Of a stretch of DNA of 64,000 nt, positions 28,923-34,344 are shown in pieces (positions within the stretch are counted from its first letter, which is position 1; every line of letters starts with the position of its first letter). The translations under genes and the position numbers were made by a program. The notes below the pieces were generated by a model, which was given only the letters and a program-made list of their open reading frames with translations, did no database searches and was not told where the DNA came from. Source of the stretch: an uncultured cyanobacterium (lineage in GTDB: Bacteria > Cyanobacteriota > Cyanobacteriia > Cyanobacteriales > CAWUOF01); the NCBI GenBank assembly GCA_963744145.1, contig CAVUSO010000001.1, positions 6,144,001 to 6,208,000 of the forward strand, in the 5' to 3' direction.

Positions 28923-29624
28923 TTAAGAAAGATCGGGATCAATTCCCAGCGATCGCAATTGTGCCGCCAATTTTTCGACTCGATGGTTCGCTTCGATCCG
29001 AGCTAATTCTTCTATCTGTAAAGCTTCCTCCTGGGTTTTATATCGATCGCCTTTTTCATCATACCAATATAACCACTCTCTTCTGATTCCTTCATAACTA
29101 CCAATCTCTACCCCAATTCCTAAGCCAATTTCTGACATCCAGACCCGGTTTCCTGGGATTAATTTATATTCACCTGCGCTCAAATGGTACACCATTAACT
29201 GCGGCTGACGACGGCGGAATGGTGCATAAATCACGTAATACAATACTCCTTGTTTTTCATACTCAATTTTCTTGCGTTTATATTCACCCCCTGGTTTTTT
29301 CGATACTACTTCGATCATCAATTGGGGTACTACTCCATTTTCTTCCCAATTCACATAGCTTAAACGTAGATTTTCTCCCTTAATTCTTGGAACTCCTAAA
29401 CTTAAGAACCCATCGGGTGCTAAACAGGGTTTTTTTGGATCAAAATGCCAAGCCATATCAATTCCAAAAAACCAATCCTGCCGATCGCGCCAAATATAAC
29501 TCAGTATAGATTTTAACAGATGACAAACTAAATCTTGTAATTCACTATCCACGGGTTGATCGTCAGAATATGGTAATTCTGCTGCGGTTGGGAGCTTTTT
29601 TTCTAGCTGGTTGTAAGTTAGCAT
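28923..29624 (-). CDS. Uma2-family PD-(D/E)XK endonuclease, 233 aa (0 extra units)
   Basis: LPTAAELPYSDDQPVDSE, APDGFL, IEVVS and LRSLGIDP motifs. Confidence 0.9.
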   Translation of the reverse strand: MLTYNQLEKKLPTAAELPYSDDQPVDSELQDLVCHLLKSILSYIWRDRQDWFFGIDMAWHFDPKKPCLAPDGFLSLGVPRIKGENLRLSYVNWEENGVVPQLMIEVVSKKPGGEYKRKKIEYEKQGVLYYVIYAPFRRRQPQLMVYHLSAGEYKLIPGNRVWMSEIGLGIGVEIGSYEGIRREWLYWYDEKGDRYKTQEEALQIEELARIEANHRVEKLAAQLRSLGIDPDLS

Positions 29625-29702
29625 AGTTAGATATTATTCTGAGCAGAAACTAACTTTTCTATCCTGATCATACCATAAATAGTCAAAAGTTTATAATTAA
29701 GT

Positions 29703-30530
29703 TTAAGAAGGATCAGGCTCAATTCCCAGCGATCGCAATTGTGCCGCCAATTTCTCGGCTCGATGGTTCGCTTCTATCTGGGCTAATTCTGCTAGCTGTG
29801 CTTGTTGTTGAGCTTCCCTCTGGGCTAATTCTGCTAGCTGTGCTTGTTGTTGAGCTTCCCTCCGTGCTAATTCTGCTTGTTGTGCTTGTTGTTGAGCTTC
29901 CCTCCGTGCTAATTCTTCTAGCTGTAACGCTTCTTCCTGGGTTTTATATCGATCGCCTTTTTCATCATACCAATATAACCACTCTCTCCTGATTCCTTCA
30001 TAACTACCAATCTCTACCCCAATTCCTAAGCCAATTTCTGACATCCAGACCCGGTTTCCTGGGATTAATTTATATTCACCTGCGCTCAAATGGTACACCA
30101 TTAACTGCGGCTGACGACGGCGGAATGGTGCATAAATCACATAATACAATACTCCTTGTTTTTCATACTCAATTTTCTTGCGTTTATATTCACCCCCTGG
30201 TTTTTTCGATACTACTTCGATCGTCAATTGGGGTACTACTCCGTTTTCTTCCCAATTCACATAGCTTAAACGTAGATTTTCTCCCTTAATTCTTGGAACT
30301 CCTAAACTTAAGAACCCATCGGGCGCTAAACAGGGTTTTTTTGGATCAAAATGCCAAGCCATATCAATTCCAAAAAACCAATCTTGCCGATCGCGCCAAA
30401 TATAACTCAGTATAGATTTTAACAGATGACAAACTAAATCTTGTAATTCACTATCCACGGGTTGATCGTCAGAATATGGTAATTCTGCTGCGGTTGGGAG
30501 CTTTTTTTCTAGCTGGTTGTAAGTTAGCAT
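29703..30530 (-). CDS. Uma2-family endonuclease, 275 aa (3 extra 14-aa units)
   Basis: Same core as the other copies plus ELARREAQQQAQQA-type repeats. Confidence 0.9.
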   Translation of the reverse strand: MLTYNQLEKKLPTAAELPYSDDQPVDSELQDLVCHLLKSILSYIWRDRQDWFFGIDMAWHFDPKKPCLAPDGFLSLGVPRIKGENLRLSYVNWEENGVVPQLTIEVVSKKPGGEYKRKKIEYEKQGVLYYVIYAPFRRRQPQLMVYHLSAGEYKLIPGNRVWMSEIGLGIGVEIGSYEGIRREWLYWYDEKGDRYKTQEEALQLEELARREAQQQAQQAELARREAQQQAQLAELAQREAQQQAQLAELAQIEANHRAEKLAAQLRSLGIEPDPS

Positions 30531-30611
30531 AGTTAGATATTATTCTGAGCAGAAACTAACTTTTTTTCTATCCTGATTATACCATAAATAGTCAAAAGTT
30601 TATAATTAAGT

Positions 30612-31355
30612 TTAAGAAGGATCAGGCTCAATTCCCAGCGATCGCAATTGTGCTGCCAATTTTTCGGCTCGATGGTTCGCTTCTAGCTGGGCTAATTTTG
30701 CTAACTGTGCTTGTTGTTGAGCTTCCATCCGGGCTAATTCTTCTAGCTGTAACGCTTCTTCCTGAGTTCTATATCGATCGCCTTTTTCATCATACCAATA
30801 TAACCACTCTCTTCTAATTCCTTCATAACTACCAATCTCTACCCCAATTCCTAAGCCAATTTCTGACATCCAGACCCGATTTCCTGGGATTAATTTATAT
30901 TCACCTGCGCTCAAATGGTACACCATTAACTGCGGTTGACGACGACGGAATGGTGCATAAATCACGTAATACAATACTCCTTGTTTCTCATATTCAATTT
31001 TCTTGCGTTTATATTCACCCCCTGGTTTTTTCGATACTACTTCGATCGTCAATTGGGGTACTACTCCGTTTTCTTCCCAATTCACATAGCTTAAACGTAG
31101 ATTTTCCCCCTTAATTCTGGGGACTCCTAAGCTTAAGAACCCATCGGGCGCTAAACAGGGTTTTTTTGGATCAAAATGCCAAGCCATATCAATTCCAAAA
31201 AACCAATCTTGCCGATCGCGCCAAATATAACTTAGTATAGATTTTAACAGATGACAAACTAAATCTTGTAATTCACTATCCACGGGTTGATCGTCAGAAT
31301 ATGGTAATTCTGCTGCGGTTGGGAGCTTTTTTTCTAGCTGGTTGTAAGTTAGCAT
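30612..31355 (-). CDS. Uma2-family endonuclease, 247 aa (1 extra unit)
   Basis: Same core plus one repeat unit. Confidence 0.9.
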   Translation of the reverse strand: MLTYNQLEKKLPTAAELPYSDDQPVDSELQDLVCHLLKSILSYIWRDRQDWFFGIDMAWHFDPKKPCLAPDGFLSLGVPRIKGENLRLSYVNWEENGVVPQLTIEVVSKKPGGEYKRKKIEYEKQGVLYYVIYAPFRRRQPQLMVYHLSAGEYKLIPGNRVWMSEIGLGIGVEIGSYEGIRREWLYWYDEKGDRYRTQEEALQLEELARMEAQQQAQLAKLAQLEANHRAEKLAAQLRSLGIEPDPS

Positions 31356-31433
31356 AGTTAGATATTATTATGAGCAGAAACTAACTTTTCTATCCTGATC
31401 ATACCATAAATAGTCAAAAGTTTATAATTAAGT

Positions 31434-32345
31434 TTAAGAAGGATCAGGCTCAATTCCCAGCGATCGCAATTGTGCCGCCAATTTCTCGGCTCGATGATTC
31501 GCTTCTATCTGGGCTAATTCTGCTAGCTGTGCTTGTTGTTGAGCTTCCCTCTGGGCTAATTCTGCTTGTTGTGCTTGTTGTTGAGCTTCCCTTCGGGCTA
31601 ATTCTGCTTGTTGTGCTTGTTGTTGAGCTTCCCTTCGGGCTAATTCTGCTTGTTGTGCTTGTTGTTGAGCTTCCCTTCGGGCTAATTCTGCTTGTTGTGC
31701 TTGTTGTTGAGCTTCCCTTCGGGCTAATTCTTCTAGCTGTAATGCTTCTTCCTGGGTTTTATATCGATCGCCTTTTTCATCATACCAATATAACCACTCT
31801 CTTCTAATTCCTTCATAACTACCAATCTCTACCCCAATTCCTAAGCCAATTTCTGACATCCAGACCCGATTTCCTGGGATTAATTTATATTCACCTGCGC
31901 TCAAATGGTATACCATTAACTGCGGCTGACGACGACGGAATGGTGCATAAATCACGTAATACAATACTCCTTGTTTCTCATATTCAATTTTCTTGCGTTT
32001 ATATTCACCCCCTGGTTTTTTCGATACTACTTCGATCGTCAATTGGGGTACTACTCCGTTTTCTTCCCAATTCACATAGCTTAAACGTAGATTTTCCCCC
32101 TTAATTCTGGGGACTCCTAAGCTTAAGAACCCATCGGGCGCTAAACAGGGTTTTTTTGGATCAAAATGCCAAGCCATATCAATTCCAAAAAACCAATCTT
32201 GCCGATCGCGCCAAATATAACTTAGTATAGATTTTAACAGATGACAAACTAAATCTTGTAATTCACTATCCACGGGTTGATCGTCAGAATATGGTAATTC
32301 TGCTGCGGTTGGGAGCTTTTTTTCTAGCTGGTTGTAAGTTAGCAT
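31434..32345 (-). CDS. Uma2-family endonuclease, 303 aa (5 extra units)
   Basis: Same core plus five repeat units. Confidence 0.9.
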   Translation of the reverse strand: MLTYNQLEKKLPTAAELPYSDDQPVDSELQDLVCHLLKSILSYIWRDRQDWFFGIDMAWHFDPKKPCLAPDGFLSLGVPRIKGENLRLSYVNWEENGVVPQLTIEVVSKKPGGEYKRKKIEYEKQGVLYYVIYAPFRRRQPQLMVYHLSAGEYKLIPGNRVWMSEIGLGIGVEIGSYEGIRREWLYWYDEKGDRYKTQEEALQLEELARREAQQQAQQAELARREAQQQAQQAELARREAQQQAQQAELARREAQQQAQQAELAQREAQQQAQLAELAQIEANHRAEKLAAQLRSLGIEPDPS

Positions 32346-32423
32346 AGTTAGATATTATTCTGAGCAGAAACTAACTTTTCTATCCTGATCATACCATAAA
32401 TAGTCAAAAGTTTATAATTAAGT

Positions 32424-33293
32424 TTAAGAAGGATCAGGCTCAATTCCCAGCGATCGCAATTGTGCCGCCAATTTCTCGGCTCGATGGTTCGCTTCTATCT
32501 GGGCTAATTCTGCTAGCTGTGCTTGTTGTTGAGCTTCCCTCTGGGCTAATTCTGCTAGCTGTGCTTGTTGTTGAGCTTCCCTTCGGGCTAATTCTGCTTG
32601 TTGTGCTTGTTGTTGAGCTTCCCTTCGGGCTAATTCTGCTTGTTGTGCTTGTTGTTGAGCTTCCCTTCGTGCTAATTCTTCTAGCTGTAACGCTTCTTCC
32701 TGGGTTTTATATCGATCGCCTTTTTCATCATACCAATATAACCACTCTCTTCTAATTCCTTCATAACTACCAATCTCTACCCCAATTCCTAAGCCAATTT
32801 CTGACATCCAGACCCGATTTCCTGGGATTAATTTATATTCACCTGCGCTCAAATGGTATACCATTAACTGCGGCTGACGACGACGGAATGGTGCATAAAT
32901 CACGTAATACAATACTCCTTGTTTCTCATATTCAATTTTCTTGCGTTTATATTCACCTCCTGGTTTTTTCGATACTACTTCGATCGTCAATTGGGGTACT
33001 ACTCCGTTTTCTTCCCAATTCACATAGCTTAAACGTAGATTTTCCTCCTTAATTCTGGGGACTCCTAAGCTTAAGAACCCATCGGGCGCTAAACAGGGTT
33101 TTTTTGGATCAAAATGCCAAGCCATATCAATTCCAAAAAACCAATCTTGCCGATCGCGCCAAATATAACTTAGTATAGATTTTAACAGATGACAAACTAA
33201 ATCTTGTAATTCACTATCCACGGGTTGATCGTCAGAATATGGTAATTCTGCTGCGGTTGGGAGCTTTTTTTCTAGCTGGTTGTAAGTTAGCAT
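32424..33293 (-). CDS. Uma2-family endonuclease, 289 aa (4 extra units)
   Basis: Same core (one G>E change) plus four repeat units. Confidence 0.9.
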   Translation of the reverse strand: MLTYNQLEKKLPTAAELPYSDDQPVDSELQDLVCHLLKSILSYIWRDRQDWFFGIDMAWHFDPKKPCLAPDGFLSLGVPRIKEENLRLSYVNWEENGVVPQLTIEVVSKKPGGEYKRKKIEYEKQGVLYYVIYAPFRRRQPQLMVYHLSAGEYKLIPGNRVWMSEIGLGIGVEIGSYEGIRREWLYWYDEKGDRYKTQEEALQLEELARREAQQQAQQAELARREAQQQAQQAELARREAQQQAQLAELAQREAQQQAQLAELAQIEANHRAEKLAAQLRSLGIEPDPS

Positions 33294-33371
33294 AGTTAGA
33301 TATTATTCTGAGCAGAAACTAACTTTTCTATCCTGATCATACCATAAATAGTCAAAAGTTTATAATTAAGT

Positions 33372-34157
33372 TTAAGAAGGATCAGGCTCAATTCCCAGCG
33401 ATCGCAATTGTGCCGCCAATTTCTCGGCTCGATGGTTCGCTTCTATCTGGGCTAATTCTGCTTGTTGTACTTTTTGTTGAGCTTCCATCCGGGCTAATTC
33501 CGCTAGCTCGGCTCGATGGTTCGCTTCCATCCGTGCTAATTCTTCTAGCTGTAAAGCTTCTTCCTGGGTTTTATATCGATCGCCCTTTTCATCATACCAA
33601 TATAACCACTCTCTCCTGATTCCTTCATAACTACCAATCTCTACCCCAATTCCTAAGCCAATTTCTGACATCCAGACCCGGTTTCCTGGGATTAATTTAT
33701 ATTCACCTGCGCTCAAATGGTACACCATTAACTGTGGCTGACGACGACGGAATGGTGCATAAATCACGTAATACAATACTCCTTGTTTTTCATACTCAAT
33801 TTTCTTGCGTTTATATTCACCCCCTGGTTTTTTCGATACTACTTCGATCGTCAATTGGGGTACTACTCCGTTTTCTTCCCAATTCACATAGCTTAAACGC
33901 AGATTTTCTCCCTTAATTCTGGGAACTCCTAAACTTAAGAACCCATCGGGTGCTAAACAGGGTTTTTTTGGATCAAAATGCCAAGCCATATCAATTCCAA
34001 AAAACCAATCTTGCCGATCGCGCCAAATATAACTTAGTATAGATTTTAACAGATGACAAACTAAATCTTGTAATTCACTATCCACGGGTTGATCGTCAGA
34101 ATATGGTAATTCTGCTGCGGTTGGGAGCTTTTTTTCTGGATGTTTGTAAGTTAGCAT
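33372..34157 (-). CDS. Uma2-family endonuclease, 261 aa (2 extra units)
   Basis: Same core with a distinct N-terminus (KHP) and upstream region; first copy in transcription order. Confidence 0.9.
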   Translation of the reverse strand: MLTYKHPEKKLPTAAELPYSDDQPVDSELQDLVCHLLKSILSYIWRDRQDWFFGIDMAWHFDPKKPCLAPDGFLSLGVPRIKGENLRLSYVNWEENGVVPQLTIEVVSKKPGGEYKRKKIEYEKQGVLYYVIYAPFRRRQPQLMVYHLSAGEYKLIPGNRVWMSEIGLGIGVEIGSYEGIRREWLYWYDEKGDRYKTQEEALQLEELARMEANHRAELAELARMEAQQKVQQAELAQIEANHRAEKLAAQLRSLGIEPDPS

Positions 34158-34250
34158 AGATATTTAGATGATCAAAAAATAATTTTTCTATCTTTATCAT
34201 ACAATGAAGGTTCAGTTAAGAATATTTTTGATATCTCGGCTTTAGAAGAA

Positions 34251-34344
34251 GGGTGAAGCATTCGGGGATAAGATCACTGCCCTTCGACTTCGCTCAGGGT
34301 AAACTTTAATCGCTCAATTTTCGCCCGAATGCTTCACCCCTACA
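34251..34344 (-). repeat. REP-like palindrome carrying a 24-nt insertion
   Basis: Reverse-complement copy of 6136-6205 with an extra CCCTTCGACTTCGCTCAGGGTAAA at 34280-34303. Confidence 0.85.

Follow-up and report, generated by a model that had tools for sequence, protein, structure and literature searches.

Six tandem Uma2 nuclease-like genes in an uncultured cyanobacterium with repeat-coded tails that differ in steps of 14 residues

Within a 64,000-nucleotide stretch of the genome of an uncultured cyanobacterium (GCA_963744145.1, contig CAVUSO010000001.1, positions 6,144,001 to 6,208,000; hereafter the window), six open reading frames of the Uma2 family (PF05685) lie in tandem on the minus strand at window positions 28923-34157 and encode proteins of 233, 275, 247, 303, 289 and 261 residues. 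These lengths equal 233 + 14n, with n = 0, 3, 1, 5, 4 and 2 for copies 1 to 6, and the copies share an almost invariant core followed by a tail that varies by whole units of 42 bp. We regard the tails as probably the product of a slippage-prone in-frame repeat in which selection maintains the reading frame and the phase of the heptads; the complete ladder of zero to five units would then be largely fortuitous. Tandem duplication, self-interaction and cyanobacterial expansion of this family are already published; the six-copy array with its 42-bp, 14-residue steps is new here. The genes and the spacers that separate them are as follows, beginning with the copy transcribed first.

33372..34157, minus strand: Uma2 copy 6, transcribed first; 261 residues, n = 2; PF05685 match of 51 bits; seven private core substitutions; both units diverged, ELARMEANHRAELA + ELARMEAQQKVQQA, one of them a hybrid with the terminal unit
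32424..33293, minus strand: Uma2 copy 5; 289 residues, n = 4, units A A B C; Tandem Repeats Finder period 42, 4.5 copies, at 32501-32688
31434..32345, minus strand: Uma2 copy 4; 303 residues, n = 5, units A A A A C; PF05685 match
30612..31355, minus strand: Uma2 copy 3; 247 residues, n = 1; single unit ELARMEAQQQAQLA at about 30699-30740
29703..30530, minus strand: Uma2 copy 2; 275 residues, n = 3, units A B C; Tandem Repeats Finder period 42, 3.5 copies, at 29780-29925
28923..29624, minus strand: Uma2 copy 1, last in the array; 233 residues, n = 0; PF05685 match
29625..29702, minus strand: spacer of 78 bp, one of five near-identical spacers
30531-30611 (81 bp), 31356-31433, 32346-32423 and 33294-33371 (78 bp): the other four spacers

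An earlier reading of the DNA letters (hereafter the original prediction) had described six genes with these lengths and a near-invariant core of about 200 residues, and both descriptions agree with the list of open reading frames and the protein alignment. The copies of 233, 303 and 261 residues, which were scanned with Pfam, score 49.5-52.7 bits with PF05685, whose cut-off is 27, and the remaining copies are 97-98% identical to the first. All alignment gaps lie beyond residue 205, in a single stretch made up of complete 14-residue units, so the further claim that length differs only by whole 42-bp units stands as well. As a refinement, more than one kind of unit occurs: the copies with n = 3, 4 and 5 are built from ELAR/QREAQQQAQQ/LA units, of the forms A, B and C, and those with n = 1 and n = 2 carry diverged 'ARMEA' units. 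Tandem Repeats Finder calls period-42 repeats in four of the six genes. The longest run, in copy 4 (5.3 copies, 97% matches, 31511-31731), includes four A units that are all identical at the DNA level and together form a perfect 42-bp repeat of 168 bp. Copies 2, 5 and 4 (A B C; A A B C; A A A A C) are single-step relatives of one another. The tail of copy 1 consists of the degenerate terminal unit ELARIEANHRVEKL and the C-terminal motif only, and the terminal segment ELAQIEANHRAEKL is itself a degenerate repeat unit.

The six copies appear to be real working genes, and their cores are under purifying selection. Across the 615-nt cores we counted 31 variable sites, with private substitutions in all six copies; 24 of these sites are synonymous and seven nonsynonymous, against the 80% nonsynonymous changes expected under neutrality (binomial P = 1.7e-11). 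Pairwise ratios of nonsynonymous to synonymous divergence (dN/dS) range from 0.00 to 0.13 (0.02-0.13 where dN > 0), and dS reaches 0.15. Because of the private changes, the low dN/dS and the accumulated dS, the copies are neither assembler duplicates nor the outcome of a recent amplification, and each has long been kept intact. Their histories are not fully separate. Core site patterns grouping copies {1,2}, {1,6} and {2,6} are mutually incompatible, and copy 3 is a mosaic, with a core that differs from those of copies 4 and 5 by 5-6 nt and a tail unit that resembles copy 6; segments have therefore been exchanged between copies.

Uma2, also known as COG4636, DUF820 or TT1808, is described as a family of putative PD-(D/E)XK nucleases (Feder & Bujnicki 2005, PMC551604; Steczkiewicz et al. 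2012, PMC3424549). All six copies have P70-D71, E105 and K118; among 34 aligned relatives P70 and K118 are likewise invariant and D71 and E105 nearly so. COG4636 has been assigned a variant active site in which PD is followed by E-x-x and the lysine is shifted downstream (PMC551604), and K118 may be this relocated catalytic lysine. For the n = 0 copy, the AlphaFold2 monomer is a weak model, with a mean predicted local distance difference test (pLDDT) score of 66.7 and residues 46-95 below 50. Its top seven Foldseek matches come from the solved Uma2 proteins 6okh, 9y1l, 1wdj and 3ot2 at E values of 9e-4 to 5e-2, with template modelling (TM) scores of only 0.20-0.34. A profile search of PDB sequences gave no match at E <= 0.01, and the array proteins had no match in NCBIfam. 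In PADLOC-DB 2.0 no confident defence match was obtained, the nearest being a weak partial match to PDC-S03 (residues 97-154, E 1e-4 to 9e-4, 17-20 bits). The family's function is given in the literature as 'predicted endonuclease', and our literature search found no experimentally demonstrated function or nuclease activity for a Uma2/DUF820 protein. The array proteins are putative nucleases.

Much of what the array displays is shared with known Uma2/COG4636 proteins: the PF05685 domain, the PD...E...K residues, expansion in the genome and tandem copies. Family expansions in cyanobacteria have been published, as have family members that are accessory genes in type III CRISPR clusters, and the tandem COG4636 duplications on record include four consecutive genes in Crocosphaera watsonii (PMC551604). 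The difference lies in the tail. Solved Uma2 proteins have 151-186 residues and lack a long tail, whereas the array copies possess one, and the six-copy arrangement with a tail encoded by a 42-bp repeat in 14-residue steps sets the array apart from them. We found no description of heptad-stepped or repeat-coded Uma2 tails in a literature search that covered the main articles, and the word 'coiled' has no occurrence in PMC551604.

The tail is predicted to be helical and to pair. In the AlphaFold2 monomer of copy 1 the tail helix spans residues 198-225. The original prediction had proposed modelling of dimers, and a homodimer model of the 275-residue copy 2 reached a score of 0.75, compared with 0.00 for the best of three controls; among proteins with solved structures, 21 of 30 homodimers and none of 23 single chains attain the mark. 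The model runs, made without an alignment, agree in at least 89% of contacts and have pLDDT values of at least 84. Contacts run from each residue to its counterpart over residues 198-275 (202-202, 209-209, 223-223, 258-258, 261-261), and the two cores touch as well. As modelled, the tail would form a continuous parallel, in-register dimeric coiled coil with the cores at one end and the C-terminal motifs at the other. This geometry does not bear out the earlier suggestion that the stalk spaces two cut sites, as the model places both cores side by side at one stalk end. Self-association has precedent in the family: a yeast two-hybrid study of Synechocystis lists DUF820 in nine self-interacting proteins and reports contacts between paralogues (PMC2779905).

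Since the tail helix ends in the C-terminal motif, n would set the distance between the nuclease dimer and that motif. By our estimate one 14-residue unit, equal to two heptads, would add about 2.1 nm, a value based on the helical rise per residue. The array is a natural allelic series, with essentially one core on six stalk lengths; combined with the heptad rule of the family (below), this suggests that the tail and its C-terminal motif work as a module for which placement relative to the core is important. In a second genome, referred to here as G016, two Uma2 proteins (L082:4958-5794 and L082:6170-6988) have tails that end in a segment of about 28 residues in place of LRxLGIDPD. These ends give sub-threshold Pfam matches to helix-turn-helix domains only (GerE at E = 0.008; others at 0.04-0.07), which suggests only faintly that the distal end of the stalk might bind DNA.

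The stepwise change in tail length extends beyond the array. The genome holds about 55 Uma2 open reading frames, several of them in tandem groups, and most encode a heptad-repeat linker followed by a C-terminal ...LRxLGIDPD motif. Of 485 proteins examined, 306 have both the core and the C-terminal motif, and in 295 of these the two motifs are 4 modulo 7 residues apart; the 485 come from this genome, G016, related loci and database matches, count the six array copies twice and include many related sequences. Orthologues in other strains also differ in length, moving by 7 residues at a time inside clusters of 90% identity. A Nostoc cluster at 90% identity has lengths in 7-residue steps (246 three times, 253, 260, 267 four times, 274 three times, 281, and 288 twice), a second 90%-identity cluster from other strains has 232 six times, 239 four times and 246 five times, and a further one has 257 four times, 250 five times, 241 and 229. 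Within such clusters about 196 of 1018 pairs (19%) are equal in length, by a hand count over the listed full-length members. Judged from the sequences, stepwise tails are a trait of the family and the tail is constrained by heptad phase.

Close relatives of the array itself were not encountered in other genomes: in 40 genomes of relatives the best match to an array protein is only 60% identical, and among 2354 matches in the protein database the best one from any other genome shares 59% identity, the six array copies being the sole members of their 90% cluster. A second Uma2 subfamily in this genome lies outside the window. Its seven paralogues share at least 80% identity; three of them stand in tandem, two are close by and two are scattered (G000:C1 1508529-1525334, 5916817-5917581 and 6309188-6309994). 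Their lengths of 233, 240, 247, 254, 261, 268 and 289 residues correspond to 233 + 7n with n = 0-5 and 8, and all differ. Uma2/DUF820 is among the most expanded cyanobacterial protein families, with the 3.8-Mb G016 carrying 111 PF05685 matches. These include two tandem trios of tail-less Uma2 genes of 191 residues each, in which equal lengths have been kept (G016:C1 228806-230545 and 1222821-1224630).

Perfect repeats, tails that are single-step relatives and the drift in length among orthologues fit a slippage-prone but constrained minisatellite, and we infer slippage as the mechanism of change. The long tails are expected to be mutationally unstable because their 42-bp repeats are perfect. 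The array does not behave as a phase-variable locus, as the 42-bp unit is in frame and all six reading frames stay open; slippage would therefore alter the length of the protein and not its expression.

Taken together, we envisage each protein as a nuclease-like core of about 197 residues leading into one long helix and then the conserved motif ...KLAAQLRSLGI(D/E)PD, the helix being paired in parallel and in register with that of a second subunit. The helix would be coded by an in-frame 42-bp minisatellite whose unit specifies 14 residues, or two heptads. Replication slippage or unequal recombination, acting within and between copies, would alter the number of units, and changes that break the frame or the heptad phase would be purged by selection, which also preserves the core. 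The array would in this way yield one nuclease dimer on six stalk lengths, and the occurrence of each value from zero to five exactly once would capture a rapidly mutating repeat at one moment, with no selection for the set as such.

Several observations sit uneasily with this reading. The paired stalk on which it draws is a model, and a tail so rich in Ala, Gln, Arg and Glu could alternatively be a single stable helix. No contig of the public short-read run X1 spans the array, several bins within it are without cover, and the unit counts of the long repeats come from the assembly alone. Six distinct values of n drawn at random from 0-5 have a probability of 0.015 (the figure of 6!/6^6 = 0.0154 in the original prediction is arithmetically correct), or 0.037 when conditioned on the observed range, both nulls having been chosen post hoc. 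Several groups in this genome also form consecutive runs of tail lengths, namely those of 58 + 7n (n = 0-5, 8), of 55, 62, 69 and 76, and of 55, 62 and 69. Finally, no two close paralogues in this genome have equal tails. For this comparison, paralogues at least 80% identical were grouped and the number of pairs with equal tails was set against heptad counts shuffled among groups; the tests were designed post hoc and the tail-bearing groups were chosen by eye. Across ten groups and 38 genes none of 66 pairs is tied, where 5.3 ties are expected (P = 0.0013), and with the array excluded the nine other groups still have none in 51 pairs against 4.1 expected (P = 0.006). The deficit counts against a neutral origin of the ladder because a neutral repeat should tie at least at the chance rate, and a snapshot of a fast-mutating repeat does not explain it. 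The groups of close paralogues so compared in this genome include those in G000:C1 at 5292666-5296605, 7613636-7615583, 29489-30454 and 2460468-2461412.

The missing ties and the recurrence of consecutive runs, seen also in G016 with tails of 38, 45 and 52 and of 89, 96 and 103, are what favours a selected graded set, in which duplicates are retained only if their stalk length differs and serve either as rulers holding the motif at graded distances or as homodimers matched by length. The array copies fill each even heptad step from the minimal tail to near the top of the common range of motif distances, and recombination homogenises the cores with the tails remaining different. We nevertheless consider this a fairly unlikely account. 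Outside this genome the deficit is not replicated: in 13 tail-bearing groups with 29 genes, taken from G016 and from 78 loci of genomes and 79 of metagenomes, three of 19 pairs are tied against 3.0 expected (P = 0.67). Among them are the near-identical tandem pairs at L127 and L191, exact ties that both stand at the minimal repeat-free tail. A strict motif-based version of the test gave one tie against 1.9 expected (11 groups, 41 pairs, P = 0.12). Perfect repeats also imply that any given length is short-lived, orthologues in other strains drift by 7 residues, and the C-terminal motif has no known function or partner. The bolder form of the proposal, that close paralogues are held at distinct stalk lengths as a length code, governing self-pairing or placing the motif at about 5 to 15 nm, and that the array is a complete selected ruler set, appears to us unlikely. 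Of the original prediction of one nuclease displayed on graded stalks, the graded display itself is upheld by the near-identical cores, the purifying selection and the dimer model, and the claim that the complete set of zero to five was selected finds no support outside this genome. Were a deficit of equal-length paralogues general, this would be an unusual example of a gene family in which selection acts on how long the repeat-coded spacers are; the small sample from other genomes does not support this, and the lack of ties in the present genome stays unaccounted for by a constrained minisatellite.

The tie tests covered a defined set of groups. The two tail-less G016 trios, which are trivially tied, were left out, as were one five-member G016 group and four G016 pairs with other C-terminal ends, the L145 pair (one frame truncated) and the L112 pair (236 and 236 residues, 74% identical and so below the 80% threshold). 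The genome G041 has 65 scattered Uma2 matches and offers no obvious close paralogues; G005, G011, G007, G027 and G002 were set aside, as the best 150 of their 318 matches are mostly short, with frames mostly below 225 residues.

A different origin for the array would be selfish proliferation, whereby breaks and recombination induced by the nuclease lead to duplication of the gene that encodes it, and both the array and its variety of tails are useless to the host. This mechanism has been proposed for COG4636, for which tandem duplications are reported (Feder & Bujnicki, PMC551604), and it would suit the abundance of Uma2 frames and tandem groups in this genome. The position of the array is likewise not shared: its flanking genes, including the adjoining glutamate synthase gene, were found at none of 107 related loci checked. 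Two members of the array's subfamily, at G000:C1 7030090-7030767 (69% identical) and 7046201-7046764 (65% identical), have one internal stop codon each and are probably pseudogenes. On the other hand, the divergence among the six copies (dS up to 0.15, dN/dS no higher than 0.13) indicates that each has long been kept intact, and the heptad-phase rule means that the tail is constrained too. We find it quite improbable that proliferation is the whole account; it would explain where copies come from and not what they do, and as such it is compatible with a tail maintained by selection for frame and phase.

That the true copy number or the unit counts of the long repeats differ from those assembled, so that the ladder is unreal, is highly improbable: the missing cover in X1, the only public run, and the 168-bp perfect repeat of copy 4, which short reads cannot count and noisy long reads can miscount, leave room for it, but every copy has private substitutions and the window belongs to a single 7.63-Mb chromosome that is accompanied by three small contigs and contains no N. 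The run X1, which contains 56% of the sampled words, was used in the form of contigs and may derive from the sample behind the assembly. Contigs of array sequence shared between copies (core or spacer) have depths of 20.3, 24.6 and 31.2, whereas the single-copy flanks stand at about 3-7 and a tail piece found in copy 6 alone at 6; word depth in contigs is not a copy number, and these depths fit the presence of several copies. The same six lengths appear in a public protein collection, which was derived from the same assembly and so provides no independent check.

Two other systems offer points of comparison for a constrained minisatellite of this kind. The Bdr proteins of Borrelia are size-variable through in-frame tandem repeats, and paralogues within one genome have different repeat numbers. 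They resemble the array in that repeat number alters length without breaking the frame and paralogues differ in their counts; they differ in being membrane or surface proteins, whereas the array encodes a putative cytoplasmic-type nuclease fold, and the sequences are unrelated. WbdD and WbbB of O-antigen synthesis act as coiled-coil 'molecular rulers'. Here the likeness is a rigid helical spacer, in heptad steps, between two functional ends, although for the array this geometry is modelled. In WbdD and WbbB one protein per cell defines one product length, as shown experimentally, whereas the array has six coexisting lengths and no product is known.

The sequence between the genes varies little. 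In aligned spacers, every one has a stretch TGGTATGAT (or TGGTATAAT) resembling an extended -10 element, and these stretches might serve as promoters. A promoter scan found no enrichment of consensus sites (10 compared with a mean of 15.4 in shuffled sequence), and a scan for minus-strand terminators between the array genes found none.

The neighbours of the array are housekeeping genes, namely psbY, folC and those for glutamate synthase and a hexapeptide transferase. Window positions 34245-34340, which separate the array from the glutamate synthase gene, hold a palindrome about 100 bp long whose predicted hairpin has an energy of -40.8 kcal/mol; it has 278 BLAST matches in the genome, 81 of them at least 70 nt long. 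The bin containing it has a depth of 96.6 in the public run, where one contig skips 78 bp at this place, and the element looks like a miniature mobile repeat.

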